This document shows, piece by piece, positions 1-48,387 of a DNA stretch of 64,000 nt (positions are counted from its first letter, which is position 1; every line of letters starts with the position of its first letter). Origin of the DNA: an uncultured virus (IMG/VR IMGVR_UViG_3300032038_000054) (lineage: Duplodnaviria > Heunggongvirae > Uroviricota > Caudoviricetes); the IMG/VR virus record IMGVR_UViG_3300032038_000054. The stretch is one strand, 5' to 3'. Position numbers and translations under genes: made by a program. The notes under the pieces were generated by a model. That model was not told the origin of the DNA. It made no database searches and was given only the letters and a program-made list of their open reading frames with translations.

Positions 1-165
1 AGAAATGTTCTTGGGGATGAAATGATAACAATATATAAAAATGAAAGCTTAACCATTGATATATGTTATAACTATGCATACTTCGAGGTATTCGGATTAA
101 CAAATGAAGAGTTTAGAGAACTTGAAAAGTATTACGACTCTTTAGAAGAAAGCGAGAAGGAATAA
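1..165 (+). CDS. Hypothetical protein, 5'-truncated by window edge
   Basis: Frame 1 is open from base 1 (RNVLGDEMITIY...YFEVFGLTNEEF...) to TAA at 163-165, directly followed by the next ATG. Confidence 0.7.
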   Translation, partial: RNVLGDEMITIYKNESLTIDICYNYAYFEVFGLTNEEFRELEKYYDSLEESEKE

Positions 166-642
166 ATGGAAAAGAAAGAACTAAAAGCAACAACGCAAAA
201 AAGTTATTACGGGAAAGCAATAGTAATAGAAGATAAGTTCGGAAATAAAAGACTGAAAAGCTATAAAACAATAGTAGCAGAAATCACAAGAAAGGGAAAA
301 TTCAAAAGGCTATGGGAAGGATATAGCCAAACGACAATGAATCATATAAATGAATTTAGAAAAGAAAATGGGCTAGAAAAAATCAATGCAAAAGAATGGA
401 AGAACATGCAAGTAGAAAAAAGGGATGAAAAAAGAAAAAGATGGGTATATGTTCTAAGAGATACAAAAAAGAAAACAAATGAAATATTTGAAATAGAACA
501 AAAAAGAAACGCTCTAACAAGAGCTTTAAGAAAAGAAAAATACGGAAATTTTCTAGCATTAAAAAGCTTTATAGAAATAGCACACAAAGGAGCGAAAATA
601 TATTTAAGTGACAACGCAATTCTATCAATAGAGCAAATTTAA
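166..642 (+). CDS. Hypothetical basic protein (158 aa)
   Basis: ORF track; AAGGA RBS; tight packing with neighbours. Confidence 0.8.
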   Translation: MEKKELKATTQKSYYGKAIVIEDKFGNKRLKSYKTIVAEITRKGKFKRLWEGYSQTTMNHINEFRKENGLEKINAKEWKNMQVEKRDEKRKRWVYVLRDTKKKTNEIFEIEQKRNALTRALRKEKYGNFLALKSFIEIAHKGAKIYLSDNAILSIEQI

Positions 643-652
643 GAGGTGAACA

Positions 653-856
653 ATGAATATAATAACATTACAAGCATTAACAAAAATGTGCTTAAAAGAA
701 ATGGATAAAGGAAACGGGAATAAGGTAGTAATGGTAAGAAACAATACGAAATTTGGAAATTTCACGCCAATATTAGCAGAATTTGAAGATAACAAAGACG
801 AAATAAACAAAAATATAAAAACAAGCAGTCCAGAAAACTTTATATTACTAGGGTGA
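653..856 (+). CDS. Hypothetical protein (67 aa)
   Basis: GAGGTG RBS upstream. Confidence 0.7.
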   Translation: MNIITLQALTKMCLKEMDKGNGNKVVMVRNNTKFGNFTPILAEFEDNKDEINKNIKTSSPENFILLG

Positions 857-859
857 AAA

Positions 860-1006
860 ATGAGCGAGAAAGAATTTGAAAGATTCATAAAAAGATACAA
901 AGAAACAAGAATAGCAAATAGAATAATGAATATAACGATAAACGTAATGATAATACTGTTAATCATAGTAAATATAGAAATATTAATATTATTAAACATG
1001 AGGTGA
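860..1006 (+). CDS. Small membrane protein (48 aa)
   Basis: Read by hand: MSEKEFERFIKRYKETRIANRIMNITINVMIILLIIVNIEILILLNMR*; fills the gap between neighbours. Confidence 0.55.
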   Translation: MSEKEFERFIKRYKETRIANRIMNITINVMIILLIIVNIEILILLNMR

Positions 1007-1008
1007 GA

Positions 1009-1284
1009 ATGAGGTTTATAGCGACAAAAGAGGCAATAAATAAACTAAATACATACAAAATGACGGAACTGGAAGTAGCACAAGAGCATAAGGCGTTATG
1101 GAATATTGAACATGAAGGAGGGAATATTGGGCAAGCAATAATAAATTTCAAGAACAAAGATTTAATAATAGCACCAGTAGGTAAGAGAACAGCATTAATA
1201 TATAAATACAAGCAAGAAATAAAGGGTGATTATAGAGCATTACCAGAAATAGAATATAACGGGAAAGAATGGAAAACAAAATAA
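1009..1284 (+). CDS. Hypothetical protein
   Basis: ORF track 1003..1284; ATG at 1009 follows GAGGTG. Confidence 0.7.
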   Translation: MRFIATKEAINKLNTYKMTELEVAQEHKALWNIEHEGGNIGQAIINFKNKDLIIAPVGKRTALIYKYKQEIKGDYRALPEIEYNGKEWKTK

Positions 1285-1313
1285 TAGACAAAGCGAATAT
1301 ATATTCGTATAAT
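1285..1313 (+). promoter_or_regulatory. Sigma-A-type promoter with a palindromic operator in the spacer
   Basis: TAGACA-17 nt-TATAAT; spacer contains the perfect palindrome CGAATATATATTCG (1294-1307). Confidence 0.7.
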
Positions 1314-1327
1314 AAAAGAGAAGCGAA

Positions 1328-1564
1328 ATGAAAAAAGATGAATGGATTTTAAGCAAAGAGCTAGGAAGAATAAGAAAATATGGAATAAATTTTCAAGCGC
1401 AAAGAGCAAATGAAACACAAGCAGGAAACCAAGCGGAATTAAGATATGACATAGTAACAGAAAAGACAAGAGAAGTAATAGTGCCGTATTGTACAATAGA
1501 AGAAATAATGTCAGTAACACTAGCACTAGAAAAAGTAATGGAAAGATTGAAAGATAGTGGATAG
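1328..1564 (+). CDS. Hypothetical protein (78 aa)
   Basis: ORF track; first gene after the 1285 promoter. Confidence 0.65.
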   Translation: MKKDEWILSKELGRIRKYGINFQAQRANETQAGNQAELRYDIVTEKTREVIVPYCTIEEIMSVTLALEKVMERLKDSG

Positions 1565-2237
1565 ATTGAAGAAAAGACATGAAATATGGATTGCAATAGC
1601 AATAGTTCTTATGATGATTAACGTCATATTTGTAATAATCTCATTACCAATATTATTAGTCGTATTTATAGATTATAGTTTATGTAAAAGCAAAAAAGAA
1701 ATAAAAGAAGAAGAAATAATACCAGAAGAAACAAGAAATCCAGAAATCATAAGAGCAGTATATGAAGACATAGAAGAAAGAAAACAAAAAGAAAGAGAAT
1801 ACGAAAAAATTATAGATGTAAGACAATTTGAAGGAAGAGATGATGTAAAAAAAGAAGAGGTAGAAGAATATATATGGCATCATCAAATAGGAGCAGGAAG
1901 AAGAGAAATAGAATTAATAATAAAAAAAATAATAAAAGTATGTAATATAACAGAAGAAGAAGGAAAAGAAATAATAGCAGAGCATTACTTAAAAGGAAGA
2001 GGAGATTGGGAGAACAACGAAGAAAAAAAGATAGAAAGAGAATATATAAGAAAAAGAATACGTGAAAAAGAAAATGATTATAAAAAAGTAGATGAAATAA
2101 TAAAAAAAGTAGAAAGCAAAATAGGAGAAAGCGAAAAAATAACAAAAGAAATAAGGGATAAGAAGAAAGAAAATGCAACATATGAATACATATTTCATTA
2201 TGAAGAATGGTTAAAGAAGAGGAAAAAGAATGAATGA
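1557..2237 (+). CDS. Membrane-anchored, highly charged protein (226 aa)
   Basis: N-terminal hydrophobic stretch IWIAIAIVLMMINVIFVIISLPILLVVFI followed by an E/K-rich body; overlaps the FtsK start. Confidence 0.75.
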   Translation: MDRLKKRHEIWIAIAIVLMMINVIFVIISLPILLVVFIDYSLCKSKKEIKEEEIIPEETRNPEIIRAVYEDIEERKQKEREYEKIIDVRQFEGRDDVKKEEVEEYIWHHQIGAGRREIELIIKKIIKVCNITEEEGKEIIAEHYLKGRGDWENNEEKKIEREYIRKRIREKENDYKKVDEIIKKVESKIGESEKITKEIRDKKKENATYEYIFHYEEWLKKRKKNE

Positions 2238-3546
2238 AAAAGGATTGATGAGATTTTCCGTAGGAATGTTCGCACTAGGACAAATGTTAAAGAAAAACGA
2301 CAACAAAGGAAAAGAACTTTTCAAAAAGAATAACTATTATAATCCGTTCAGATTACCACAAATGAATCATCCAGTATTCGGGAAATTATTTACAACCACA
2401 ACAAAAGGAGCAGAAAGAAATGGAAAAGCAAAAGAAACAGCGGAGAAAATATGCGATGAGATATATAGATTGGAAAACATAGAAATGATACCGCTTTACT
2501 ATAAAGAAGGCGCAAGCACAATAAAAATAAAAGTAAAACCAATAACAAACATAAAGAAAAGCTTCAATATACAACGACAAATAAAATACATAGTAGGAAA
2601 TGAGGAAGCAAGAATATATCCAGAAGGAGATAGAATAACAATAGAGATACCAAACAAAGGCAATGCAGTAAGGTTTGGAAATCTAATAAATGACGTGAAA
2701 TACAAAATAAATCAAAGCAAGACATATGTACCAATAGGAGAGAATATAGAAGGAGAAACTGTATTTGGAGACATAAAAGAAATGCCACATATGTTAGTGG
2801 CAGGAGCGACAGGAAGCGGTAAATCAGTGTTTATAAACGGCATAATTGCATCGTTATTAATAAAAAACACGCCATATGATATGAAAATGATATTGATTGA
2901 CCCGAAGATGGTAGAGTTTAGAATGTATGCAGAACTTGACTATGTAAAATACGTAACAGAGATAAAAGAAGCAATAGAAGTATTGAATAGTCTATGCGTA
3001 GAAATGGATAAGCGATATGATTTAATGGCATCAAAGGGATGTAGAAATATAGAAACATACAATGAAAAATACAAAAATGTAAGACTGCCGAAAATACTAC
3101 TGGTAGTAGACGAGATGGCAGATATGATAATAAATAAAGCACACGGAAAGGAAGTAGAAAGAAACATAATAAGATTAGCGCAGAAAGCAAGAGCATGTGG
3201 AATGCACATGGTATTAGCGACACAAAGACCATCAAGAGAGGTTGTAACAGGTCTAATAAAAGCAAATATTCCATGTAGAGCATGTCTGGCAGTGACTTCA
3301 AGAACAGAAAGCATGATTATGTTAGACCAAACAGGAGCAGAAAAATTACAAGGACATGGCGACATGCTATTTTTAGATGGAATAAATAATAGAGAGCCAA
3401 AAAGATTACAGGCAGGTTTAATAACAGACAATGAAATAAAAAACCTAGTAATATCACTAGCTTTAGACAACCAACCAGAGTATGCAAATAAATTCAATTG
3501 GAATAATAAAGCAGAAGAGATAAGAAAGTATTACGGGAGAGCGTGA
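2230..3546 (+). CDS. FtsK/SpoIIIE-family DNA translocase motor domain, with no evident N-terminal TM region or C-terminal gamma domain
   Basis: PHMLVAGATGSGKS (Walker A), LIDPKMVE, LLVVDEMAD (Walker B), RLAQKARACGMHMVLATQRPS, GAEKLQGHGDML. Confidence 0.93.
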   Translation: MNEKGLMRFSVGMFALGQMLKKNDNKGKELFKKNNYYNPFRLPQMNHPVFGKLFTTTTKGAERNGKAKETAEKICDEIYRLENIEMIPLYYKEGASTIKIKVKPITNIKKSFNIQRQIKYIVGNEEARIYPEGDRITIEIPNKGNAVRFGNLINDVKYKINQSKTYVPIGENIEGETVFGDIKEMPHMLVAGATGSGKSVFINGIIASLLIKNTPYDMKMILIDPKMVEFRMYAELDYVKYVTEIKEAIEVLNSLCVEMDKRYDLMASKGCRNIETYNEKYKNVRLPKILLVVDEMADMIINKAHGKEVERNIIRLAQKARACGMHMVLATQRPSREVVTGLIKANIPCRACLAVTSRTESMIMLDQTGAEKLQGHGDMLFLDGINNREPKRLQAGLITDNEIKNLVISLALDNQPEYANKFNWNNKAEEIRKYYGRA

Positions 3547-4166
3547 ATGGAATGAATAAAAAAACATCATGCATAACAGAAGAACAATTTAATAAGATAA
3601 TAAATATCATATACAATGGAACAAATAATGGCAAAATAAAACCATCAAAAGAAATAGCACTAATATTAACAATAACAGGAAATTGTGCGCTAAGAATAGG
3701 AGATTGTACAAAACTAAAATTAAAATCATTCATAAAAGAAGGAGGCGAATATAAATATAACATAATAGAAGAAAAGACAGGTAAATCAAGAACATGTATC
3801 ATTCCAAAAGAAATATATGGGATGATTAAAGAATATGCAGAGAAAGAAGGGAAAGGCGAAGAAGAAAATATATTTAGTATAACAGTAAGAGCAATACAAT
3901 ACAAATTAGCAAGCGTAGCAAAATATTTAGGAGAGGATTATGTAAATATAAGCACACATTCATTCAGAAAATGCGCAGGAATGAGAATATACAGGCTAAG
4001 CGGAAATGATATAGAGCTAACAAGAAAATTTCTGAATCATTCATCAGTAAGCACAACGCAAAGATATCTTGGCGTAAACAATGATGATATAAACAGAATA
4101 TTAAAATCAAACTACAAGATACCATTTAAGGAGGAAAATGAGCTATACGGTCAACATAAGAAATAA
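3543..4166 (+). CDS. Small tyrosine recombinase, catalytic domain only (207 aa)
   Basis: ALRIGD (R), EEKTGK (K), THSFRK (HxxR), LNHSS (H), TQRYLG (Y). Confidence 0.9.
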   Translation: MNGMNKKTSCITEEQFNKIINIIYNGTNNGKIKPSKEIALILTITGNCALRIGDCTKLKLKSFIKEGGEYKYNIIEEKTGKSRTCIIPKEIYGMIKEYAEKEGKGEEENIFSITVRAIQYKLASVAKYLGEDYVNISTHSFRKCAGMRIYRLSGNDIELTRKFLNHSSVSTTQRYLGVNNDDINRILKSNYKIPFKEENELYGQHKK

Positions 4167-4293
4167 ATACCATAATTTCATAGAAAAAATAGATGAATTT
4201 AAAACGTACAAAGAAGCAGAAAATTATATTAAAGAATCACACGTAGACATTGATAATTCATGCGAAGAATTTGAAATAATAGAGGTAGAATAA
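4138..4293 (+). CDS. Hypothetical protein (51 aa)
   Basis: AAGGAGG RBS, then MSYTVNIRNK...FEIIEVE*; abuts the next ATG. Confidence 0.6.
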   Translation: MSYTVNIRNKYHNFIEKIDEFKTYKEAENYIKESHVDIDNSCEEFEIIEVE

Positions 4294-4623
4294 ATGAGGA
4301 GATATTTAGGAATAATAACAATATTAATAATGATATTTGCAATGAGCGTAAAAGTCAAAGCATCATACGAAGAAGAATGGCTTGCGAAAAAGAAAGCACA
4401 ACAGGAAAAATACATGAAAGAATTGGAGGCAGAAGGAAATTTAACGGAAGAAGCATACAAGTCAATAACAAAAAAGGATGCAAAGAAAAAGAAAAGAAAT
4501 GAAAAGAATATTCAGCAAGAAAATAAAGGCTTAGTGTATGGTGTAGATGAATTACATATAACAGGATTGCCAACAGACGAAAGAGGTTATACGCAAGCAG
4601 GAAATTATGGGGAAATAGACTAA
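4294..4623 (+). CDS. Putative secreted protein (109 aa)
   Basis: Signal-peptide-like N-terminus MRRYLGIITILIMIFAMSVKVKA. Confidence 0.7.
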   Translation: MRRYLGIITILIMIFAMSVKVKASYEEEWLAKKKAQQEKYMKELEAEGNLTEEAYKSITKKDAKKKKRNEKNIQQENKGLVYGVDELHITGLPTDERGYTQAGNYGEID

Positions 4624-4655
4624 AATATCAAGGCAAATTAGGATAGGGGAAAAAG

Positions 4656-4922
4656 ATGATAGATTGGCTATATAAAAACAAAAGGAATGAAAATAAATTC
4701 ATCGAAGTAAGAAGATATGACGATGGACATTATGTTTGGAAACAATCAATAAGGCACAAAGCAAAAATAGAAAAGAAATCAAACATAGAAATCGACATAT
4801 TGAATTATACAGGATGCTCATTAAAAAGATGCAAGAAAGGAGTATGGAAAAGACAAAGAAAAGGCGTAATTGATGAAGTATTAAATGATTATAACATTGT
4901 AAAAAGTAAAATAGAGGCTTAA
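4656..4922 (+). CDS. Hypothetical protein (88 aa)
   Basis: ORF track; ends inside the terminator. Confidence 0.7.
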   Translation: MIDWLYKNKRNENKFIEVRRYDDGHYVWKQSIRHKAKIEKKSNIEIDILNYTGCSLKRCKKGVWKRQRKGVIDEVLNDYNIVKSKIEA

Positions 4923-4942
4923 TTTCAGCCTCTATTTTTTTT
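4908..4942. terminator. Intrinsic terminator at the convergence of the plus- and minus-strand blocks, probably bidirectional
   Basis: AAAATAGAGGCT-loop-AGCCTCTATTTTTTTT. Confidence 0.85.
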
Positions 4943-4970
4943 AGCATTGCGCACCAAGGGGTTACTATAA

Positions 4971-5279
4971 TTACTTTTTGAAGTCAAGTGTCTTAGCCTC
5001 GACTATGCTCTTAAAAATTTGTCCAAAATCGGAATGCCCTACAATTTCATAATCAGTAGTGGTTGCTCTAAAACAAAGGACATTGCCATATTCTGTCATA
5101 GCAAGTAAAACTTGTCCGTCAGAAGTAAAACCGTAAAATGGAGCGAAGGCGCAACCCAGAGCATAGCCAAAAATAATTCCAGTCTTATCTGGCATAAACT
5201 TATATCGAACAATATCACCTATTTTATAACCAAAGTCACTCTTATCCATGTTGTTACCTCGCAATAAATGTAAATCCAA
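4971..5279 (-). CDS. Hypothetical protein (probable start at 5249, MDKSDF)
   Basis: ORF track; GAGG RBS before the second Met. Confidence 0.65.
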   Translation of the reverse strand: MDLHLLRGNNMDKSDFGYKIGDIVRYKFMPDKTGIIFGYALGCAFAPFYGFTSDGQVLLAMTEYGNVLCFRATTTDYEIVGHSDFGQIFKSIVEAKTLDFKK

Positions 5280-8200
5280 TATAAAAAGTTGTATTTGCAG
5301 TCACAGAAAGAGATTTTCTACAATGAAGACCAGTGTAACTGTACCAAAAAGACACGCCGCCAGCCTCAACATTAACCCATCCATTAGGATTAGCAGGTAA
5401 TCCACCAAATAACACAGCGCCACCGCTATAAGTTTTTGACGCACTAAATTTCATAATGCATGTAACTTGTACAATATCACCGCGTCTAACATAAGTTAAT
5501 TGAGTTAATAATACATTAGAATCTCTTGTAGCATAATTGGGCGTTCCCGCCGCATTATCATAAAAATAACTAATATCAAGTGCATTATCTCTATCAACTC
5601 CTATTAAATGATATCTTGTACCATCGTAAATAAAAGTGGCTAAATCTCCCGCATGAATAGCATACGCCTTTATATTTGCGCCCCTATGCCATATATTTTT
5701 AGCTCCTTTTGAATTAATATTCATTGTTGCATTAGCAGGAACAGCGTTGGTGAATTTAACAGAAACATAGCCGTTAGTAACTAAATTATACCCACTAAGA
5801 GTTACTACCTTGGCGGATGTAGCTTCTGCGGTAGAACATGTACCATAGCCAGAGCCTAAACTTTGTGGAGTATAAGTAGTGTTATCATCAGAGCCATGTG
5901 ATTGCCAAACCCAAGAACCGCCATCGAATACATATGTAACATATCTATTAGAATAACCGAACGCAGTATTATTAGTGCCAGTAGGATAGGCATTGTTGTA
6001 ATAAATATTATAAGCACCAGTTCCATTAACATTAAGGGTAACTTTATTTTCGCTAGTAGCACTATACGAATTGGAGTTTTTGAATTTAACACAAACAGTA
6101 ACTCCTTTTCTTAATTTAAAATAGCCATCAACTGTAGCAACCTTATCTTTCACGTCAGCCGCCGTCTCGCAAGCCCCTATATAAATATTGCCCTTATAAA
6201 AAGTATCATTAGGTCTATATGTGTCATTTGAAAAAGCAGGTCTAAGCATGGGCTTAAAAACCTTATTATTAACAGTTGTGCCTTTTACAATTCTAATAAA
6301 ATAATTCTGGGTAGTATAAGAACCCGCGTAATCTTCAAGTTTAATTTTTTTTCCTTCACCATAATCATAAAAGGCTGATTCACCATCCTTATAGGAAAAT
6401 TTTAATTGTAAATCAAGCATGTAGGTAGAAGAAGAACCGCCGCTAGGACAACCAGATAAAATATACTCTCCCGCAGGAAGGTCATATGTGTTTATCGAAT
6501 GACCTGCAAGAACACAACTCGAATCGGCAGTAGCAGTTCCGTTTACAGTAATTTCACCAGTAGTAGGATTAAAAGTATAAGCAATACCGTTATTAACGTT
6601 AGAGTGAGTGCCATAACTCCATGAAGGCAAAAGGTTCTTGCCAGTAGCAGTCATAAGGGCGGATAAATCTCTGTCAAGAGATAACTGCCTCCATTCAGTC
6701 CATTTATTTTGGATGTTGTAATTATCATAAGACCTAAAAAAAATATTATAACTTTGAGATACATTAAAGCTATCAGACGAATGGTTAAGCGCGTAAGTAA
6801 TATAAAATTGCGTCGCATAAGACGAATCCGCAACCCTCATCACAGTTAACTTTCCCGCGAGTTTTGTGGGAATATTTAAAATAGTATTAGCCCTATTATT
6901 TGACGCAACATTATAAATGCCCTCTGTCTTATAATTATTCAAATCAGCATTATCTGGAATTTCTTGCCCATAATATACTAGGGATTGGTCTTGCTCGACA
7001 AGCCTCTTGTCGCCTCGCCAGTTGCCGTTTTTAACATAGTTATACATTAAAGCACCATTAGCTACGTTATGCTTTAATTGAAATCCATTGTTACCAAAAA
7101 AGACGTTATCAACAACGTAACCAGAAGTATCAGCCACATAATTCTGCCCCGCAACACTGCTAGAAACATCGAACGAAACAACATGATAAACGTCGTTGAT
7201 AGAGTCATACATAAGCGTTATATAATGTACACCTCTTAAACGTAAACCATCATTAACTCTTATAGTATTATTATGGTAATACCAAATAGGCTTCGCGCCA
7301 GTGTTATTAATATTAAGAGTTGCATTCACAGGAAGCGCGCTTTCAACCCTAATCATAACCATAACGCCATTGACAAGAGAAAAATTATCTATACTCGCAG
7401 TAACAGCCGAGCCGCTAATAGTAGCGACAGCATACCCACCGTTAGGCACAGCGTCGCTTGGCGCTAATTCGCACCATGGTTGAGCTGTTCCATCGTCATC
7501 AATGCATCTAACACAAACATGAACCTTATGTCCAGTGCCTTGCCAATTAGTTATATACATTTGAACGACGCGATTGCTAGAATCTGTATCAAGAACCCAG
7601 AGTTTTCCAGACCACGCTTTGTCCATGGGCATATTTGCAATAGTAGCCGCTTTGCCGTTATCAGAAACATAATAACTGCCCGCAGTAACATAATCATTAA
7701 GGTCTGCGTTATCGGGAATAGGAGTTCCTTTGAAATCAAGAGTATGAATTGCCTCGCGAAAAGCATCCATATCACCAATTTCATACGTAAGTTTCCCTTG
7801 TTTATCCATATAGAACTTGATTCCCTTTTGTCCTTTACGGTTGCCTTGCTCATCGTAATTTCTAACATAAGCGAACCATCCAATTCTTCCATCAGGCTCG
7901 ACAATGGATTCTGTACGCATGAAAATTCTTCCGTCTTTATCAAGATGGCTTTCCATGGTAGGGTAAATTACACTTGAAACGTTATTGTTTGTCTTTGAAG
8001 CAATAACGTTGTGATGTTTAATTTCAAGTGCATCAGCAACATTCCTAATTGTATAACCTTTATCATCTGGCTGTCTAGCCACAAAATAATCTTTTATTTT
8101 TGAAATAAAAGAAGAGAAAAGGCTTTTTCTCTTCTTTTTTTCGGACACATCATAAAAAGGGATATAATCTTCATCAGAAATATCCGCTACTTCATCTTTT

Positions 8201-8346
8201 ACAGCATAATAATCCGCCCTACCTTCTATTCCTACGCCAGATTTCTTATGCGCTGTATCGCCTTTCGTGAGCTTTTCTTCGTCAACAGAATCCTGTCTTA
8301 GATTTATCAAATCATCACCATTAAATCTAACTTGATTAACAGCCAT
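5254..8346 (-). CDS. Modular tail fibre / receptor-binding protein (1030 aa)
   Basis: Two knob-like repeats (IPDNADLNxYxTxGxYxV...GKLxV...QxYI) and three repeats of the type TLNINxxGAKxIWY; beta-rich composition. Confidence 0.8.
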   Translation of the reverse strand: MAVNQVRFNGDDLINLRQDSVDEEKLTKGDTAHKKSGVGIEGRADYYAVKDEVADISDEDYIPFYDVSEKKKRKSLFSSFISKIKDYFVARQPDDKGYTIRNVADALEIKHHNVIASKTNNNVSSVIYPTMESHLDKDGRIFMRTESIVEPDGRIGWFAYVRNYDEQGNRKGQKGIKFYMDKQGKLTYEIGDMDAFREAIHTLDFKGTPIPDNADLNDYVTAGSYYVSDNGKAATIANMPMDKAWSGKLWVLDTDSSNRVVQMYITNWQGTGHKVHVCVRCIDDDGTAQPWCELAPSDAVPNGGYAVATISGSAVTASIDNFSLVNGVMVMIRVESALPVNATLNINNTGAKPIWYYHNNTIRVNDGLRLRGVHYITLMYDSINDVYHVVSFDVSSSVAGQNYVADTSGYVVDNVFFGNNGFQLKHNVANGALMYNYVKNGNWRGDKRLVEQDQSLVYYGQEIPDNADLNNYKTEGIYNVASNNRANTILNIPTKLAGKLTVMRVADSSYATQFYITYALNHSSDSFNVSQSYNIFFRSYDNYNIQNKWTEWRQLSLDRDLSALMTATGKNLLPSWSYGTHSNVNNGIAYTFNPTTGEITVNGTATADSSCVLAGHSINTYDLPAGEYILSGCPSGGSSSTYMLDLQLKFSYKDGESAFYDYGEGKKIKLEDYAGSYTTQNYFIRIVKGTTVNNKVFKPMLRPAFSNDTYRPNDTFYKGNIYIGACETAADVKDKVATVDGYFKLRKGVTVCVKFKNSNSYSATSENKVTLNVNGTGAYNIYYNNAYPTGTNNTAFGYSNRYVTYVFDGGSWVWQSHGSDDNTTYTPQSLGSGYGTCSTAEATSAKVVTLSGYNLVTNGYVSVKFTNAVPANATMNINSKGAKNIWHRGANIKAYAIHAGDLATFIYDGTRYHLIGVDRDNALDISYFYDNAAGTPNYATRDSNVLLTQLTYVRRGDIVQVTCIMKFSASKTYSGGAVLFGGLPANPNGWVNVEAGGVSFWYSYTGLHCRKSLSVTANTTFYIGFTFIAR

Positions 8347-13378: not shown

Positions 13379-13453
13379 CTAATCCTTTAATTGATTGACT
13401 TTCACTAATTATTGACATATCATATATTTAGTGAAATAACAACGAGGTACACT

Positions 13454-14593
13454 ATGGAACAAATGACAATTACTGCTAAAATTCAGATATCAGTCGATAC
13501 AGACAGTAGGGTTTTGCTTGATGAAACCATGTCTGTTTATTCCGATGCCTGCAATTTTGTGTCTGACTATGTGTTCCATACTCACGACTTAAAGCAGTTT
13601 TCGCTTAACAAGATATTGTACTCTACACTCCGAGAAAAGTTTGGACTCAAATCTCAGATGGCTCAGTCTGTATTTAAAACTGTTATCGCAAGATATAAGA
13701 CCATTCTTAAAAATCAGAAAGAGTGGATTCAGCCGTCTTTCAAGAAGCCACAGTATGACCTTGTATGGAACAGGGATTATTCCCTTACACAAAACTGCTT
13801 TTCAGTAAACACTTTGAATGGTCGTGTTAAATTACCTTATTTTGTTGAAGGTATGTCAAAATACTTTGACCATACAATCTATAAGTTTGGTACAGCCAAG
13901 CTTGTAAATAAGCATGGCAAGTATTATTTGCATATCCCCGTAACCTACGATGTCGAAGAAAGTAATGTTTCTGACATCTGTAATGTCGTTGGTATTGACA
14001 GAGGTATAAACTTTGTCATTGCTACTTATGACAGTAAGCACAAGTCTGGATTTGTAAGCGGTAAAGCCATCAAACAGAAACGTGCTCACTATTCCAAACT
14101 TCGTAAAGAACTCCAAATGCGTCACACTCCATCTGCAAAACGTAGGATTAAAGCTATCGGTCAGCGAGAAAACCGTTGGATGCAGGATGTAAACCATTGT
14201 GTGTCAAAGGCACTCGTTGAGAACAACCCGAAGCATACACTTTTTGTCCTTGAAGATTTGTCGGGCGTTCGCAATGCTACAGAGCGTGTCAGAACTAAAG
14301 ACCGCTATGTTTCTGTGTCATGGTCTTTCTATGACCTTGAACAAAAACTCATCTACAAGGCTAAACAGAATCAGTCTGCTGTTATTAAGGTTGACCCTCG
14401 TTATACGAGTCAGTGCTGTCCTGTATGTGGACGCATTGAAAAGTCTAACCGCAACAAGAAGATACATCTGTTTACTTGTAAAAACTGTGGCTATAAATCT
14501 AACGATGACCGTATTGGAGCTATGAATCTGTACCGCATGGGAATCAACTATCTCGAAGACAGTCAAGTACCGAGTACAGTTACGGCAGAGTAA
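13454..14593 (+). CDS. tnpB: RNA-guided endonuclease TnpB (copy 1)
   Basis: RuvC-I VGIDRG, RuvC-II LEDL, YTSQCCPVCG...CKNCG zinc ribbon, RuvC-III NDDRIGA; GAGG RBS before ATG at 13454. Confidence 0.93.
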   Translation: MEQMTITAKIQISVDTDSRVLLDETMSVYSDACNFVSDYVFHTHDLKQFSLNKILYSTLREKFGLKSQMAQSVFKTVIARYKTILKNQKEWIQPSFKKPQYDLVWNRDYSLTQNCFSVNTLNGRVKLPYFVEGMSKYFDHTIYKFGTAKLVNKHGKYYLHIPVTYDVEESNVSDICNVVGIDRGINFVIATYDSKHKSGFVSGKAIKQKRAHYSKLRKELQMRHTPSAKRRIKAIGQRENRWMQDVNHCVSKALVENNPKHTLFVLEDLSGVRNATERVRTKDRYVSVSWSFYDLEQKLIYKAKQNQSAVIKVDPRYTSQCCPVCGRIEKSNRNKKIHLFTCKNCGYKSNDDRIGAMNLYRMGINYLEDSQVPSTVTAE

Positions 14594-14729
14594 ATCTTTG
14601 TCGTAAGGGGCGGTGTCAACCGTCCCATGATGCGACACCACGGAAGTTACACCGACAAAATGTAGGAGTTATTGCAACGAACTACAGGGGAGTCGCAAGC
14701 CCATTACCTTTAGGTGATGGGTAGTTGAC
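14560..14729 (+). ncRNA. Predicted TnpB omega-RNA scaffold of element 1 (5' boundary approximate)
   Basis: GC-richer structured tract between the tnpB 3' end and the right-end hairpin, the known location of TnpB omega-RNAs. Confidence 0.65.
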
Positions 14730-14732
14730 CAT

Positions 14733-15182
14733 TTAGTCCTCTTCATTTGTCTTTTTCTTAGTAGGCTTAAACGAAATCTCAGAAATCTTCTTTTCAACTT
14801 CTTCCTTTATTTTGTCTGAAACAATCTGTTCAACCAAGTCCTCTATTTTATCTGATATAAGACTTTCAAGCTCCTCTCGCTTCATATAATCTTTAAGCTG
14901 TTCAGAATCTTTCGGTTCAGTTTCATCTACAAGCCTTTTCTTAATAAAAGTTACTTTACCTAGTTGGTCTACAGACTTCATGTAAAGATAATCAGCTCTT
15001 TGATTCATCAAAAAGATACTTTGTCCTGCATTAAGAGGATAGTTCACACCTTCTTCCTCGCTTTGAACCCAAGCAAGTATTTGATTCTGAGCCTGTGAAG
15101 GCTGTGGCATTACTGGTTGTTGAAGTTGTTGTTGAAAATTTGGATAGCTTTGATAATAGCTAGGATAGGGATAGTTGTTCAT
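14733..15182 (-). CDS. Unknown-module gene 2: Tyr/Pro/Gln-rich N-terminus followed by a globular-looking core
   Basis: MNNYPYPSYYQ...WVQSEEEGVNYPLNAGQSIFLM...YMKSVDQLG; ATGA overlap with the upstream gene. Confidence 0.8.
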   Translation of the reverse strand: MNNYPYPSYYQSYPNFQQQLQQPVMPQPSQAQNQILAWVQSEEEGVNYPLNAGQSIFLMNQRADYLYMKSVDQLGKVTFIKKRLVDETEPKDSEQLKDYMKREELESLISDKIEDLVEQIVSDKIKEEVEKKISEISFKPTKKKTNEED

Positions 15183-15568
15183 TCTTTTTCCTCTCTTTTC
15201 CAATAAAATATCGGGGTCTCGTCACTACTATTCCAAGAATCGTAGATATTTGAATCTTTGATACAGGCAACGTGTGTACCCGTTCCAACAATGAATGTTC
15301 CTTTAGGATGGTCTTTTGCAAAATCCCTAAAGGTATAACAATCTGGACACAGGTTAGAGATTGCGTATCGTCTAAAGCCTTTTGAATGTAAATACGAATT
15401 AAGGACAATATTCGATGAAGGCATATCCTTCAAGAAAAATCCTTGCGAAGCTAGTTCGATATACGCACTATCCCATGACGTATTTAACGCTTTCGCTAAA
15501 CACCTTATAGTGCAGTCTCCTATTCCGCGTCTCTGGTATGGATTCGGGTTATAATACACGTATGCCAT
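15179..15568 (-). CDS. Unknown-module gene 1: putative papain-like (C39-like) cysteine peptidase
   Basis: GDCTIR (Cys), GTHVAC (His), IYDSW (Asp) in papain-like order. Confidence 0.6.
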   Translation of the reverse strand: MAYVYYNPNPYQRRGIGDCTIRCLAKALNTSWDSAYIELASQGFFLKDMPSSNIVLNSYLHSKGFRRYAISNLCPDCYTFRDFAKDHPKGTFIVGTGTHVACIKDSNIYDSWNSSDETPIFYWKREEKE

Positions 15569-15632
15569 CTTGCTTTCCTTTCGTGAGGGGATGACAATTT
15601 ATTTTATAGGGGCTGTCATCCCTCTGAACTGT

Positions 15633-15699
15633 ATTATATAATACTTGTTTAAATAGGAACATGAAAAAAACATGCAATTTTTATGAAATTTTCATGCAA
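15633..15699 (-). promoter_or_regulatory. Promoter with -10 TATAAT and four 11-bp-phased direct repeats in place of a -35 box
   Basis: Plus strand: ATTATA at 15633; CATGAAA/CATGCAA/TATGAAA/CATGCAA at 15660, 15671, 15682, 15693. Confidence 0.65.
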
Positions 15700-15745
15700 T
15701 TTTTGAGAAATATAAAAAAATAATGTCAATTTAAACACTTAACGC

Positions 15746-15780
15746 AAAATAGCCCTCAACAAATAAGTTGAGGGCTATTT
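15746..15780 (-). terminator. Intrinsic terminator ending the second tail block
   Basis: AAATAGCCCTCAAC-loop-GTTGAGGGCTATTT. Confidence 0.85.
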
Positions 15781-15796
15781 AATAATTTTGAACCTA

Positions 15797-17566
15797 TTAT
15801 GCCTTTACGTCAGTACAAATAAAGTAAAAATTATTATTAGTTCCATATAAGCCATCTTTAAAAGCGCTATTAGGGCTTAAAATGTAATAATACTCATCAT
15901 TGCCATCGTCACAATCCTGATAAGGAATGACTTTGGGAGATTCTACTTGCCAATCAATTTTTAAATCTGATTGTCTTTCATAGCCACGACCATAACCCCG
16001 ATAAATATAATTAGAAAGTCCCTTATTAGTAGCTATTGCTCCACCCATTATTCGCGTATTAGTTGACGACTGAGAATATGCCCCTTGTCTAGTGGAAGGC
16101 ATGTCCTCATAATATTCCATTATTGAGCCGTCAATACTCTCATAATGTTTTCCATAAGAAGTGAAGCACTCCGCATTAGAGCCATATCCGCTTACATAAT
16201 ATGAATCATATGTGTTATAGAAACCGTCTCGATATTCAGCATGTTTATCTATTTGCCAATTATCGCCTCTAATTATATACTCACCGTTATTATTTGTGCA
16301 TACATGTATTTTATTATAATACGACGGGTTGTTATGCCAAGTAATATACACGCCGCATTGATACGCATTAAAATTATACGTTCTTATTTGTCTCCAAACG
16401 CCGTTTTCTAACACACAAAGGACGCTTGTACTTGAGTTTTCATTACTACTGCCAAATGCATAAAGCTTCCATGTTTGAGCGCTGTCTGTCGTGTATTTAA
16501 AAACATAGTATGGTGCAAAAGAGGAAGCATTAATGGATGATGGAGAACCATAACTTACCCACTCCATTACCTTTCCTTCCGCATCTTTTTTTGACAATTT
16601 ATAAACATTACTTGATTTTTTGGCGACTACAAATAAGGAATTGTCAAACAACATAACCTGCCTTACGCCATAAGAGTCTCCCTGTCCATTATTAGGTGTC
16701 CATCTAGTAACTATTTTACATCTTTTTTCAATACTTCCTGCTCTTATGGTTAAGTACGTGCTTCCCATAATTGATGTAGAATGTGTACTGACAGTCAAAC
16801 CGTCATTAGAAATACCACCTGCATGAACATAATCATCATCAACACTATATTTAATCCTATTAATATCAGCATTCGCAGGTACAATTTGAATAGGTATTTT
16901 CTTACTATCTTGATAGGTCAGCCTTACTTTGGAAGGCACTATGATATCTTCAATCGGAATAGCAGACTCTCCGTTTGCCCATAGTATTGTATCTGGACGA
17001 TTCTTTTGTTTGATTAGTGCCTTTATGTAGAAAGTTCCATTACTGATTCCTGTTACAAGCCCTGTAGAACTCACGGTTGCTACAGAAGTATCAGTGCTAG
17101 AATATTCAACTGTATATTTCGCATTTGAAGGCAATACGCTTAATGTTAATTGAATCGTATCGCCTATTCCAACTTCAAAAGGCGTAGGAGTCAATGTTGC
17201 ACTCGTAATAGCAACATTGAAATTAAACCAATTTAGACAGCTTTGCTCCAAATGATTAAGCCCATCTGCGTTTACAAAATTATTATTTCCCTTATAAGAA
17301 CCTCTTTCACCAACGGTCACATTCCCATCCATCCTCTTGAATGAATCGAGGGCTTTTTCAAAAGCTTCAAATTCTGACGGGAAGTAATCGTTATCATAAC
17401 TTGTTTTCGGCAATCCAAGATTTATTTCTACGGCTTTTTCGGGATTGTCATTATTAAATCTATCGTTAAGAAATAACAGGTTATTTCTTATTCTATTATA
17501 GTCTTGATATGTAAACTGGTCGGTCTTAACCCAGTCTGTTTTAGGAGTTATCCATTCGTAGCTCAC
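15797..17566 (-). CDS. Tail-associated protein with Ig-like (Big_2) domains (589 aa)
   Basis: N-terminal WITPKTDW...DYNRI; Ig-like VGIGDTIQL...YSSTDTSVATVSSTGLVTG. Confidence 0.75.
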   Translation of the reverse strand: MSYEWITPKTDWVKTDQFTYQDYNRIRNNLLFLNDRFNNDNPEKAVEINLGLPKTSYDNDYFPSEFEAFEKALDSFKRMDGNVTVGERGSYKGNNNFVNADGLNHLEQSCLNWFNFNVAITSATLTPTPFEVGIGDTIQLTLSVLPSNAKYTVEYSSTDTSVATVSSTGLVTGISNGTFYIKALIKQKNRPDTILWANGESAIPIEDIIVPSKVRLTYQDSKKIPIQIVPANADINRIKYSVDDDYVHAGGISNDGLTVSTHSTSIMGSTYLTIRAGSIEKRCKIVTRWTPNNGQGDSYGVRQVMLFDNSLFVVAKKSSNVYKLSKKDAEGKVMEWVSYGSPSSINASSFAPYYVFKYTTDSAQTWKLYAFGSSNENSSTSVLCVLENGVWRQIRTYNFNAYQCGVYITWHNNPSYYNKIHVCTNNNGEYIIRGDNWQIDKHAEYRDGFYNTYDSYYVSGYGSNAECFTSYGKHYESIDGSIMEYYEDMPSTRQGAYSQSSTNTRIMGGAIATNKGLSNYIYRGYGRGYERQSDLKIDWQVESPKVIPYQDCDDGNDEYYYILSPNSAFKDGLYGTNNNFYFICTDVKA

Positions 17567-25018: not shown

Positions 25019-26506
25019 GTGAACTACCCACCACCTAAAGGAAGTGGGCTTCGTAGAGCCATTCGGCTCTTTTTAAGAAGTTTGATATTTAAGCTTCCAC
25101 CTGATTTATCAGGCAATCCTTATTCTTACGGGCGTGTCCACCTCGCCCCTAGCGTATAGTCCGTCTAAGGACACAACGTTACTTTTACGTAGGATATTAA
25201 GCGCTCCATTTATATCAGCATTAAGACATTTACCATTCTTACATTGATACATTCCTCTGTGAATTCTATTGCCGCTAAATATATATGTTTTTGGATTATC
25301 ATTATTGTAAATTGGAAGTTCATCTTTATCCCAGAATGAGGATTTAGATGTATAGCTTTCTTCCTGTTTTACAAACACAATACTATTTAACTCACATAGA
25401 TATTCTAATTTAAAGCGCAATTGACCGTAAGGGATATTTACAAAATTTTGATTATTTGCTTTTCCCATATCAACATTGCGTTGGAATGTCTCATTATAGC
25501 CAACTACGAGAGTTCCTATATTATTAGATATACAATAGTCTATGATTTTACGAGCAGTCTTGTTCATATAATCATTAACCTTATTGTTTCTATTTCTGGT
25601 ATTAGCTTTTTGTCTGTTAGTTGGTCTATATCCCAAACGCTGTTTGTCTTTAATTGACTGTAACTGAGCATTACGCTTGTTATACCACTGATTGATAGAT
25701 TTAAGTCTCTTTCCATCTATGATGAATGACTTACCTTCACTTGATACAGCAGTTACAAGATTATTTATACCTAAGTCTAAAGCTAGTGCATTGTTTTGAT
25801 TTAGATTTCCTTGAATATTTTCAGCTTCATATATGTACTGGATTTCAAAGAACCTAGCGTTTGCCTTTGGTATTATGCGTATCTCTTTAACTTTTTTATC
25901 AACTAAAATCGGTGGTATTGTAATCTCTACACTTTTATGGGTCTTCTTATAAGTGTTTGAAAATGGAAGTATTAACTTATTTCCATTTAGCCTTACAAAA
26001 CCAATCACAAGAGTAGCATATCCATCTTTCGGAAGATAATTAGGTAATTTACAATCTTTAAAAGCATACTTACCTTTTTTAGCAAGCTTCAGTAAACCAA
26101 AGAATGACTTGAAGCTGCCATCTACTTCTTTAAGTATCTGCTGAGCCATATTTGAGTTGAGTAATTTATAGTTTTCAGATGACTTTAAAAGAGCGTAGTT
26201 CTTCTCATAGTTTAGATACTCGCCTTCATTGAGGTAGTATTGTCTTACATTGTAGATTGCCTGATTAGTTAAGTTCTTTGCTATATGGCAAAGTTCCTTG
26301 ATTGATTTATAGTCTTCTTTTGACAGATGTTTAACCTGTTGTTTTACTGCAAGATACATAAGCTTTCTCCTTTCTATAGATTTAGGATTATCCTATGTAT
26401 ATATTATATCATATTTTACTAAAAAATACCATTTTCAGTAAAATAACAGTCTATGAGGCGGCATTCATCCCACCACTCAAGAGTAGTGTTTTTCTGCCTC
26501 GTTTCT
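25019..26506 (-). mobile_element. Non-autonomous IS200/IS605-family element 2 (tnpB only), inserted in a small gene
   Basis: Left end after TTTAT with an imperfect hairpin; right end CCCACTTCCTTTAGGTGGTGGGTAGTTCAC; removing it restores an ORF from 26526 to 24919. Confidence 0.8.
25109..26359 (-). CDS. tnpB: RNA-guided endonuclease TnpB (copy 2; variant without the Cys zinc ribbon)
   Basis: ALDLGINN, QEESYTSK, NADINGA. Confidence 0.92.
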   Translation of the reverse strand: MYLAVKQQVKHLSKEDYKSIKELCHIAKNLTNQAIYNVRQYYLNEGEYLNYEKNYALLKSSENYKLLNSNMAQQILKEVDGSFKSFFGLLKLAKKGKYAFKDCKLPNYLPKDGYATLVIGFVRLNGNKLILPFSNTYKKTHKSVEITIPPILVDKKVKEIRIIPKANARFFEIQYIYEAENIQGNLNQNNALALDLGINNLVTAVSSEGKSFIIDGKRLKSINQWYNKRNAQLQSIKDKQRLGYRPTNRQKANTRNRNNKVNDYMNKTARKIIDYCISNNIGTLVVGYNETFQRNVDMGKANNQNFVNIPYGQLRFKLEYLCELNSIVFVKQEESYTSKSSFWDKDELPIYNNDNPKTYIFSGNRIHRGMYQCKNGKCLNADINGALNILRKSNVVSLDGLYARGEVDTPVRIRIA

Positions 26507-33717: not shown

Positions 33718-34956
33718 CTATATAGCAATCCGCTTTTCTGTTAAATATCTGCCCCGTGGTTCAAGCAATCTCATGTTCTTGTAACCTACGGATGCATTTA
33801 AACGTGTTCCATCTAAAAGTCTTAAATCCATACGTCCTGTTATCCGTCTGCCAAAAATAAAACACTCTATACGATTCCACAGAACTTTGTCAAACAATCT
33901 GAAACCTTTAACCAAATATTCAGCTTGATTACGTTTCCTATAGCCGCCCTTCTGAATAGTATTTTTATGTATCTGCCTGTTGTGACAACGTACTTTCTTT
34001 TGGTAAAAAACATATCCTAGTGGCTTCGCTAATGAATTGCCACTAATACACCTCGCATCAATGTAATGTTCTTTTGGCAAGCCATGTTCTATACGCTTAT
34101 TCTTTGTAATATATCCATATGTCATGTGTACATTCGGATATGTTTCTTTAAGTTTGTTATAGAAAGTCCACCGCATAATTCCCATAAAAGCAGAATCTTT
34201 AAAACTAGCGCCACGCTTAATTGACTTAGGTAGTTGTACATTCCCTTTATGGTACTGAATGTGGCAATATTCACAAAGCGTTACTAAATTATTTGGTGCA
34301 TCACCACCTGTCTTTCGGCTTTCAATATGATGGACATTCAGTATATTGTCTTTTGATTTACCTTTACAGCATTGGCAAGTATGGTTATCACGCCATAACA
34401 CATATTCTCTGACATTCCAAAAATCTAACTGTTCGCCTTGCTGATATTCAACTCCTTGTATATTTGGATTTTTAATCTTCTGAATATCAAATTGTGCTGT
34501 TTCCACAGTAATCTTAGTTATTGGAAGTATCTTATGCACATTTGCAATTACTGTAAGGTGAGTATTAATCTTTTCTTTGATGCTTGGTGCAAGCCATCCA
34601 TCACCTCTACGTCTATTGTCAAATCTAGCCTTGCGATATCTAATCTTGCGGTTACGTCTCGCCCTACGATTTTCCCTACGAGTGGATAACAGCTCAACAA
34701 TGTCGTTACGAAGTTTCACATCTGCTTCATAAAGAACTTTATCCTCTGTTGTAGCTGAAACTCCGATGTGTTTACTTCCTGCATCAATTCCAAGACTAAT
34801 AGGTTGCGTATAATTTGTGCCTTTATACAAAAGTTGTATTGTAAACGGACAACGTTTAATGACTTTAGCTTTACCATCTTCAAGAAGATGCCTAACCTTT
34901 CCATACCGATTAGTCGGCATTAGTGGCTGTCCGTCTGCGTTTAACACGTATACCAT
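33718..34956 (-). CDS. iscB: RNA-guided endonuclease IscB
   Basis: PLMP N-terminus, GIDAGS (RuvC-I), RRxRR bridge helix, VETAQFD (RuvC-II), HNH VHHI...NLVTLCEYCH, HYIDA (RuvC-III). Confidence 0.95.
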   Translation of the reverse strand: MVYVLNADGQPLMPTNRYGKVRHLLEDGKAKVIKRCPFTIQLLYKGTNYTQPISLGIDAGSKHIGVSATTEDKVLYEADVKLRNDIVELLSTRRENRRARRNRKIRYRKARFDNRRRGDGWLAPSIKEKINTHLTVIANVHKILPITKITVETAQFDIQKIKNPNIQGVEYQQGEQLDFWNVREYVLWRDNHTCQCCKGKSKDNILNVHHIESRKTGGDAPNNLVTLCEYCHIQYHKGNVQLPKSIKRGASFKDSAFMGIMRWTFYNKLKETYPNVHMTYGYITKNKRIEHGLPKEHYIDARCISGNSLAKPLGYVFYQKKVRCHNRQIHKNTIQKGGYRKRNQAEYLVKGFRLFDKVLWNRIECFIFGRRITGRMDLRLLDGTRLNASVGYKNMRLLEPRGRYLTEKRIAI

Positions 34957-34964
34957 AATCGGTA

Positions 34965-35234
34965 TTCCTTTCCTGTGAACTTAATCACATAATTCAGTTC
35001 CATACTGAACTGTAATGATACCTTCGCCAATGTTAATGAGAGGTTTTATATATCTACAACACTATTCCTATACCACAGAATTGTTTAATCACAGACCTTA
35101 GAACTACAAGCTAGGTATTATACTCGTAGGTAACTATATATTCTCTCTTAACGTAGTTCAGCCAATAGGCTTCACTTAGGCTACTCACTCTGGGTTGTTA
35201 GACAACCCCACGGCTTGCCGTGGGTATTAGTGAG
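34965..35234 (-). ncRNA. IscB omega-RNA (HEARO-like) scaffold
   Basis: About 270 nt non-coding, upstream of iscB, with CTCAC/GTGAG stem, TAGCCTAAG, ACTACGTT and AACATTGGCGAAG motifs. Confidence 0.8.
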
Positions 35235-41465: not shown

Positions 41466-41480
41466 ATGTATTCCTCTCCC

Positions 41481-43178: not shown

Positions 43179-43580
43179 TTATTCTCCTTTTCCAAAAAAT
43201 AGTTCAGTTACATCTACTGCTCTTAGTTTAGCTCTATATATTTTATTATTTCTATCAATTTTATACCAATCATCGCACTTAAACTCTCGACATATAAGTG
43301 GTCTGACTTCGTAAATAGTACACTTATGAGTAGCTTTTGTGTCATCTAAAAAAGGGCATGTGGCATCAAACAAAGCCTCTCTGTGAACAAATATAGCGTG
43401 TTTCTGTTGCTTTATATTGTGCTTCTTGATGTAATTGCGGATAGTATTGATTTCCTTATTATTCAAGGCTAAATAGCGAGAACAACAGTTGCCACACTCA
43501 CTACATTTTCCATTATGAGTAAAGTCATGTGTGCCATTTTGATAATCATTTGCCATTTCTTCAACACTTCCAATTTTCAT
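43179..43580 (-). CDS. YkgJ-family cysteine-cluster protein
   Basis: CSECGNCC...CPFL...CTIYEVRPLICR. Confidence 0.85.
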   Translation of the reverse strand: MKIGSVEEMANDYQNGTHDFTHNGKCSECGNCCSRYLALNNKEINTIRNYIKKHNIKQQKHAIFVHREALFDATCPFLDDTKATHKCTIYEVRPLICREFKCDDWYKIDRNNKIYRAKLRAVDVTELFFGKGE

Positions 43581-43876: not shown

Positions 43877-43887
43877 TTCCCACTCCT

Positions 43888-44683: not shown

Positions 44684-44694
44684 ATTCTACTCCT

Positions 44695-45360: not shown

Positions 45361-45361
45361 A

Positions 45362-46141: not shown

Positions 46142-46155
46142 AACGCTCCTTTCTT

Positions 46156-46725: not shown

Positions 46726-46740
46726 GCCTCCCTCTCCTGT

Positions 46741-48380: not shown

Positions 48381-48387
48381 CCACAAT

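Follow-up and report, generated by a model that had tools for sequence, protein, structure and literature searches.

An extremely A-rich genome arm with a conserved border element in a group of rumen phages

Purine-rich coding strands and special early regions of phage genomes are both already known. In Bacillus subtilis, the use of A- and G-ending codons is driven by Rho, which stops RNA rich in C and T (Dierksheide et al., PMC13323073), while the RNA polymerase of Clostridioides difficile pauses at T-rich, not at A-rich, sequence (PMC13174505, a preprint). The purine richness of Firmicute genes has only just been tied to transcription, and whether strand asymmetry stems from selection or mutation is an old dispute. 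Here, we describe a region in which such a bias is taken to an extreme, namely positions 1-4922 (the block) of a 64,000-nucleotide stretch (1-64000; the window) that forms the start of a 77,401-bp record of an uncultured virus without end repeats (G000; IMG/VR IMGVR_UViG_3300032038_000054). Within a ~90-kb siphovirus-type rumen phage, the block makes up the last 5 kb of a divergent arm of ~21 kb, and it ends next to a conserved, promoter-like sequence, the border element. The pattern of this arm points to an unexplained, strand-specific force on one part of the genome.

A-loading of one arm and its border

On its coding (plus) strand, the block contains 2441 A among 4922 nucleotides (0.496), compared with an A share of 0.353 on the coding strand of positions 4923-64000 (binomial p about 1e-93), and its GC content is 0.30 vs 0.37. 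The remainder of the window is given over to minus-strand genes for the head, the tail, replication and lysis. At fourfold-degenerate sites (base shares at which are abbreviated A4, T4 etc.), the block has A 0.76, C 0.04, G 0.13 and T 0.07 (n=409), as opposed to A 0.35, C 0.12, G 0.13 and T 0.41 in a late reference of 65 hand-listed minus-strand genes (n=6468). Likewise, 156 of the 185 Ile codons are ATA, in line with the preliminary description of this DNA, which had reported mostly A-ending codons. Its hand counts of A (38/60 at 2041-2100, 32/60 at 3121-3180 and 21/60 at 62401-62460) were exact, and the bias does extend to conserved genes as it had claimed, but the two samples from the block were high picks, the whole FtsK gene being 46% A.

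Roughly 60% of the A excess is synonymous choice and 40% amino-acid composition, recoding with late codons leaving an A share of 0.41. The shift operates at the nucleotide level: it adds to each codon family's own preference and is even along genes. It is also specific to A, with G flat, and brings the coding-strand purine share to 67-69%, confined to this one arm. TTTT runs occur at 1.4/kb in A-loaded sequence versus 7.6/kb, and the arm spacers are A-rich too (0.49-0.52 vs 0.35-0.38); as a neutral reference, spacers were dropped, consisting mostly of hairpins and promoters (A 0.42, T 0.30, 1998 nt). A likelihood change point places the end of the bias at 4915 (range 4905-4925), on a convergent terminator hairpin (4908-4938, with T-tracts on both strands up to 4942). 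An end of the bias at the 4908 terminator, as originally described, therefore holds for its strong part, whereas a weaker plus-strand A excess runs ~3 kb further.

Loci for comparison were fetched with the tyrosine recombinase of the block as query (832 homologues). A4 minus T4 is 0.45-0.80 in A-loaded arms; in a wider survey of 222 loci of at least 5 kb, many of them redundant, 14 reached at least 0.45, all from this phage group, and no unrelated locus of the 222 exceeded 0.40. In complete relatives carrying the block (89-108 kb; G001, 91,323 bp; G004 contig 21, 88.9 kb; G002, 108 kb), it occupies the same place, as the last 5 kb of the plus-strand arm (54.97-76.40 kb in G001), which begins ~5.5 kb upstream of terS and comprises about 46-51 genes, most of them small. 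Fourfold A is 0.45-0.55 over the first few kb of the arm and 0.70-0.80 over the remainder. Hence, the view of a small-ORF (open reading frame) arm that belongs to the phage itself and is transcribed away from the terminase side was borne out. The block is not a genome end, however. G001 matches the window at 95% identity over positions 1-6974, and the comparison puts position 1 at a break within a gene and reveals that ~14 kb are missing where the two ends of the record would meet. For the same reason, a circular closure of the 77.4-kb record was rejected; the frame across the joined ends is tidy, but the complete relative has ~14 kb more there.

Sister phages with normal codon usage serve as a natural control. 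Phages with 59-80% identity in the recombinase carry the same module of transmembrane protein, FtsK, recombinase and secreted protein in the same place, within either an A-loaded or a normal arm, and A4 of the orthologous FtsK genes is 0.57-0.83 in 11 A-loaded loci vs 0.32-0.41 in five normal ones. As the module is present in both arm types, it does not explain the A bias. Terminases are 79-80% identical across arm types (80% for the normal G003), and the A-loaded G002 shares its primase-helicase type with G003, while the A-loaded G001 has another. Moreover, locus L160 joins an A-loaded arm (A4 0.74) to late genes that are 96% identical to those of G003 at the nucleotide level, the identity beginning ~15-30 bp past the border element. 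Together, the shared primase-helicase types and the L160 hybrid imply that A-loading travels with the arm, not with the rest of the genome. An additive strand bias from replication plus transcription was discarded as an explanation, since sisters with the same two-arm layout lack the bias and the replication module is irrelevant to it. That module differs even among close relatives (a DnaB-like protein of 691 amino acids (aa), window 39390-42278, minus strand, vs a 616-aa primase-helicase type, G002 14,713-17,481), independently of arm type. The six normal rows of the recombinase tree cluster together (90/80) within the A-loaded ones, and the FtsK tree is mostly unresolved; the change of arm type is thus one switch, of uncertain direction.

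Normal arms have a feature of their own, in that nearly every gene is followed by a terminator-like hairpin with a varying 12-14-bp stem and a conserved loop (TRTCACA/TRTYAAA). There are 14 such hairpins in G003 (all on the arm's plus strand, at 19.6-27.9 kb of the reverse complement), eight in L167 (seven of them in the arm; 1.3-7.2 kb), two in L165 (306 and 2620) and one in L169, as compared with none in the short loci L166 and L168 and none in A-loaded arms. We regard this hairpin as a candidate new RNA motif.

The border element is found on the plus strand directly after the terminator (4942-4971), pointing antisense into the late arm. It consists of a -35-like hexamer (TAGCAT/TTGCAT), an 18-bp spacer with an invariant GCGCxCCAAGGGG core and a -10-like hexamer (TATAAT/TATGCT/TATGAT), the consensus being TT/AGCA(T/A)-TGCGCACCAAGGGG-N4-TAT(A/G)(A/C)T. 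All 11 A-loaded loci that reach the border, representing eight distinct lineages, have it (G000, G001, G002, G004, L158, L159, L160, L162, L170, L172 and L174; L161, L163 and L164 end before the border and were excluded), each as a single copy with a matrix score of 48-53, the next best match anywhere else scoring at most 3.6. The normal loci G003, L165, L167 and L169 lack it; one 13-mer in G003 matches the core with two mismatches, inside a gene on the other strand, and scores as background. Scans of IMG/VR for the element in more distant phages returned only G001, G002 and five chance-like matches without A-loading, and Rfam gave only tRNAs and one HEARO RNA elsewhere, with no match to the border element, the left-border units or the sister hairpins. 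From the exact 18-bp hexamer spacing and the variation of the -10-like part, the element reads as a promoter antisense into the late genes; it is possible that it is a nick, packaging or recombination site instead. Its core may resemble an arm of a dif site.

Past the element, the adjacent late genes (4971-8346, minus strand) are T-rich at the fourfold sites of their own coding strand (A 0.20, T 0.54 in the first 3 kb), which amounts to A richness on the plus strand. Over the 3 kb past the border, minus-strand genes have A 0.27 and T 0.52 in seven A-loaded lineages vs A 0.35 and T 0.43 in four normal ones (p=3e-6, with sites that are not independent). This spill-over is strong in the G001 group, L162 and L170 but weak or missing in both G002 and L160; a smaller rise is seen in normal loci as well.

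Selection, mutation and other explanations

The explanation that we place first, albeit with slightly less than even confidence, is selection for plus-strand transcription by the host RNA polymerase that is poor in pauses and termination. Selection would act on the transcript as the polymerase makes it: replacing U and C would rid the RNA of Rho targets and of T-rich pauses, and the choice of A over G would keep it unfolded, such that long multi-gene messages could be made fast without an antitermination system. The border element, by its putative promoter activity, would restart plus-strand transcription into the late genes, where the same pressure would persist in weaker form, as in the observed spill-over. 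The packed A-loaded arm would then rely on its sequence, and the sister arm, with its host-like codons and conserved-loop hairpins after most genes, might rely on hairpin cassettes to be read through or processed. Rho is encoded in five of five Lachnospiraceae genomes tested, the family to which the phage's host probably belongs.

Polymorphism speaks to this reading in two ways. Among synonymous singletons of four strains (G000, G001, G004 and L158), A>G and G>A number 147:79 in the arm vs 437:350 in late genes (p=0.012), and more A>G in the arm is a sign of selection for A. Rare amino-acid variants were compared in 12 arm and 12 late protein clusters with up to 15 listed, non-random members each (95 of 303 arm and 32 of 196 late variants were excluded as ambiguous or involving multiple base changes). 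Here, pyrimidine-to-A changes (Y>A) are up 2.6-fold, against 0.7-fold for A>Y and an overall rise of 2.0-fold, and the resulting ratio of Y>A to A>Y is 3.7 (95% 1.4-9.4) as compared with the 12.7-fold that mutation alone would need. These data are compatible with a mixture or with selection alone and disfavour mutation alone.

Several observations weigh against selection on the transcript. Host-like and late genes do without A-loading: in 120 kb from one genome of the likely host genus, A4 is 0.32, the same as in the late arm, and T4 0.43, with a maximum of 0.50 in 72 genes. Rho avoidance alone does not explain the preference for A over G, and TT is not avoided beyond codon usage. The preliminary description had proposed a removal of RNA structure, and the arm RNA does fold far less (-7.9 kcal/mol per 100 nt vs -17.6), but no less than its composition gives, since the native fold (-7.8) is not weaker than those of ten synonymous shuffles (-6.3 to -7.3). 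The normal arms fall into one clade (90/80), so that the association of A-loading with the border element and with missing hairpins reflects a single evolutionary switch rather than many. The polymorphism tests themselves are mixed: synonymous A>Y (15) and Y>A (18) singletons in the arm are symmetric, a split that departs (p=0.007) from the 0.69 share expected under strong selection, and the total flux between A and Y is 2.1x the late rate vs 1.5 for the calibrator C<->T, which leans to mutation. On deeper pairs the flux test was saturated, and the samples are small, with four strains and 15 listed, non-random members per cluster.

Strand-specific mutation, an unlikely alternative, would have the minus strand of the arm repeatedly single-stranded as a template, e.g. 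when a long terminal repeat is copied by strand displacement or the border element is nicked, with deamination, oxidation and abasic sites (via the A-rule) turning G, C and T into A on the plus strand. It would fit the move of all three bases to A with spacers included, the sharp right border at a conserved single-copy element unique to A-loaded arms, the symmetric and raised singleton flux between A and Y, the antisense spill-over and the intermediate A4 (0.4-0.6) of arm genes that have late-arm homologues. Yet, rare amino-acid variants show no 10-fold Y>A excess, and the A>G singleton excess argues in the opposite direction. Damage of the ordinary kind that accompanies transcription would leave the coding strand richer in T, not in A. 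In addition, terminases remain 79-80% identical across arm types with a P22-like terS, A-loading ignores the replication module, and G002 shows no left-to-right gradient of A. As to a long terminal repeat, contig depth in two DNA runs did not double over the block, a measure too weak to count.

A bolder proposal, which we rate as rather doubtful, unites the A-loaded arm and the border element in one device. It would be either a pause-free plus-strand track on which host RNA polymerase pulls in the genome and, relaunched at the border promoter, keeps pulling through the antisense late DNA, or a region-bounded N-to-A mutator whose element marks the start of copying of one arm strand by way of a single-stranded state that is prone to damage. 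Sister phages with a hairpin-cassette arm on the same backbone amount to a natural two-state experiment; the effect is extreme and sharply bounded, and orthologous genes on nearly identical backbones either show it or lack it, which makes it directly testable. Either answer would be new for phages: a transcription-speed track that reshapes even proteins, or a mutator specific to one strand and one region.

Self-protection against an activity that cuts or modifies RNA and requires pyrimidines appears improbable. The agent could be a phage shut-off nuclease made first, a host toxin or a Cas13-like collateral activity, of which A-rich messages of that time window would survive the action. This would agree with the mild bias of the first arm gene (303-346 aa, of the A-loaded type only) and the next ~3 kb, after which the bias steps up, and with the under-use of ACT in both A-loaded arms tested (110 vs 140 and 47 vs 91). 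On the other hand, no clear nuclease family or fold was found for the first arm protein, no word is strongly avoided in this arm specifically beyond the genome-wide sites, the antisense spill-over would be unexpected, and forced pyrimidines still make up 31% of the RNA.

Very little speaks for the original proposal that the asymmetry removes palindromes and restriction sites from first-injected DNA. The asymmetry does lower the expected count of 4-mer palindromes (294 in the block vs 416 for a symmetric strand), but their actual density is not lower than elsewhere (57.9/kb vs 52.5/kb; 14.2 vs 10.9 for six-base palindromes). Strongly avoided words (GATC, GGCC, CCTGA etc.) are avoided in both arms, and GATC is absent end to end from all five related genomes (G000-G004), the normal arm included. 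In the same five genomes, GGCC and CCGG occur 0-2 times and CCTGA is avoided, with G002 and G003 also avoiding CCAG/CTGG; this word avoidance is a strong, partly host-specific restriction pressure. As for injection, terS matches PF16677 (P22 gp3, P22-like), which suggests headful packaging, and the end repeats of G001 (127 bp) and G004 (87 bp) lie in the late arm and resemble assembly overlaps. The direction of packaging from terS would follow the established headful rules of P22 and SPP1. Under such packaging the arm would enter early with transcription pointing inward, as the preliminary description had supposed, whereas the block would follow 22-27 kb after terS and so would not be the first-ejected tip. 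An early role of the arm is also probable from its gene content and layout.

Finally, we consider it most improbable that the block arose as a chimera of the assembly or is a separate element that has integrated with its FtsK and integrase: despite its different composition and lower GC, the FtsK gene adjoining a tyrosine recombinase and the exchange of arm types near the border, it occupies the same position in the same gene order in G001, G002, G004 and normal-codon sisters, the border element (to which the search for flanking repeats was limited) has no second copy, the same module sits on the minority strand of distant human-gut relatives, the motif avoidance is shared genome-wide, and the junction is real, being covered by an independently assembled contig of 15.5 kb that extends over 1-6974.

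Genes of the block, the rest of the arm and the host

All block genes are on the plus strand. The first is a 79-aa ORF truncated by the contig start, of which the 3' part remains (1-165; whole in G001, at 7697-7936 of L002), followed by a 158-aa ORF (166-642) whose N-terminal part matches phrog_4264 (unknown function) and by three small ORFs of 67, 48 and 93 aa (653-1284) without a Pfam or PHROG family. A predicted sigma-70-type promoter (TAGACA-17-TATAAT, 1285-1313; the top scan match, fitting the consensus at 11/12) contains a perfect 14-bp palindrome (1294-1307), possibly an operator, and precedes the module of the 78-aa ORF (1328-1564, conserved in A-loaded relatives), transmembrane protein, FtsK and recombinase. 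The transmembrane protein (226 aa, 1557-2237) has, by eye, an N-terminal hydrophobic segment and a Lys/Glu-rich body; its homologues precede FtsK in both arm types, and it is likely to be the membrane anchor of the FtsK-like ATPase. That FtsK/SpoIIIE-family ATPase (2230-3546; PF01580, E=3.6e-47; phrog_1358) has Walker A at 192 and Walker B at 290, and the families shown include neither an FtsK gamma nor a 4TM hit. The short (~195 aa) tyrosine recombinase (3552-4166; PF00589) possesses the R-K-H-R-H/W-Y catalytic set of its superfamily, its motifs LRIGD, HSFRK, LNHSS and TQRYL being intact and (near-)invariant in 41 aligned homologues. With its own putative promoter and palindrome, the FtsK-recombinase operon may serve in prophage upkeep. 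The block is completed by a 51-aa ORF without a family (4138-4293), a 109-aa ORF (4294-4623) with a signal-peptide-like N-terminus by eye, whose homologues close the arm in both types, and an 88-aa last ORF (4656-4922), found as an identical protein on 39 contigs of up to 93 kb. Scans with Pfam, PHROG and NCBIfam-type profiles identified no takeover or anti-defence family among these ORFs, and PADLOC matched only a generic FtsK/HerA ATPase. Most of the ORFs have no family, and the takeover or anti-defence genes of the preliminary description thus found no counterpart among those that do.

Upstream of the block, the arm includes DUF932, M28-like peptidase and HNH genes. Differing HNH-type genes, A-loaded already (A4 0.80-0.82), share one site before DUF932 (G001 68.2 kb, G004 75.6 kb, G002 93.0 kb). 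The first gene of the A-loaded arm type (G000 74,893-75,804, i.e. L001 12,894-13,805; 303 aa there, ~25 relatives) has host-optimal codons and its own terminator and, among the genomes compared, is unique to this type; searches of its protein against Pfam, NCBIfam, PDB sequences, the Atlas and known folds yielded nothing more than generic helices, apart from a faint OB-fold row (E 0.19) that is not counted. A 631-aa arm protein matches unnamed viral clusters only. Between a putatively ArdC-like 124-aa gene near the arm start, for which Pfam gave no hit, and the strongly A-loaded genes, there are three to four tandem tRNA-like units with D-arm- and T-arm-like ends and unrelated middles (G001 57,680-58,060, i.e. 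L006 17,680-18,060; G004 68,140-68,560). ARAGORN calls one undetermined tRNA in them at a relaxed score, Rfam gives no match, and the stretch is absent from the window's own record. At the divergence point (G000 ~73,190-73,480, i.e. L001 11,190-11,480) lie about a dozen near-palindromic TTTTGTGGTACAAAA repeats, replaced in G002 by unrelated GTTACA repeats; they are possible candidates for origin, partition or packaging sites. A-loaded arms also contain a repeated hairpin, GTCAAG...CTTGAC, often followed by CTACATGG or TTACGTG (G000 75,906 and 77,057; G001 55,985, 57,216 and 62,262; G002 82,555, 83,153 and 86,184). It is reminiscent of pieces of HEARO/omega-RNA.

Elsewhere in the window are three TnpB-like genes (13412-14593, plus strand; 25109-26359 and 47107-48198, both minus) and an IscB gene (RRXRR-HNH; 33718-35234, minus) with a HEARO RNA at 35012-35234; when G001 is aligned, no fewer than three of these stretches fall into gaps. 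Beside the replication genes, 35692-38398 (minus) encodes a GT2-GT1 fusion and a GT10 fucosyltransferase-like protein. The tape-measure-type ORF of G002 (43,433-60,691) has 5752 aa vs 3165-3287 aa in G000, G001 and G004.

The host is probably a Butyrivibrio-like member of the Lachnospiraceae. The insertion sequence with the TnpB-like gene at 13412-14593 has copies of 88-91% identity in the genus Butyrivibrio, to which this search was confined, matching 24 of 88 genomes and 14 places near full length. None of 401 genomes from the family that probably contains the host held a close prophage (49% for the best terminase). The phage species occurs commonly in gut samples from cattle, sheep and goats, with 24 runs from 13 studies among those listed. 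Contigs from RNA runs cover the block, although contigs alone can neither show transcription nor rank genes.

Comparison with described systems

The Rho-driven purine bias of Bacillota (PMC13323073) shares with the arm a C/T-poor coding strand, purine-ending fourfold codons and purine-rich amino acids. The C/T depletion includes synonymous sites in the arm as well. In Bacillota, however, the purine share is 54% genome-wide, compared with 67-69% in a single arm here, where the excess is A-specific; late and host-like genes in our case stay at A4 0.32-0.35, and genes of the likely host genus do not share the bias (fourfold A+G 0.41). A term search of that paper's main text found no mention of phage. 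The work on T-rich pausing of the C. difficile polymerase and A-rich coding strands (PMC13174505) offers a clostridial mechanism by which putting A in place of T would speed elongation; there, it is genome-wide and concerns the polymerase of a family other than Lachnospiraceae. In a mostly open-access literature, we found no A-specific, region-bounded, swappable arm with its own border element.

Among phages, the first-injected regions of T5-like phages and Autographiviridae (PMC10644984, PMC12455610) are likewise variable small-ORF regions with probable early entry and sequence rules of their own. In those phages, sites are absent from the leading region only and genome ends are fixed, whereas here avoidance is genome-wide and packaging looks headful. 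The small early genes of sk1, c2, the SPO1 takeover module and SPP1, which in sk1 and c2 are on the opposite strand and meet the late genes at a terminator or end, have A4 of 0.28-0.44 and T4 of 0.22-0.42, i.e. no such loading. Regarding the block's own module, FtsK-XerCD dimer resolution and FtsK-like coupling proteins offer the likeness of an FtsK motor beside a catalytically intact tyrosine recombinase; here, by contrast, the recombinase is short, there is no gamma-domain hit and no dif-like site shown, and scores lie far below the curated cut-offs (40 and 30 bits vs 335 and 330 for XerC/XerD; 242 vs 1566 for FtsK). Lastly, the promoter-stem-loop (PeSL) cassettes of T4-type phages (PMC2839356) resemble the normal arm of the sister phages, with its hairpin after most small genes, but the hairpins of the normal arm have a conserved loop and few consensus promoters beside them (two in 17 kb).

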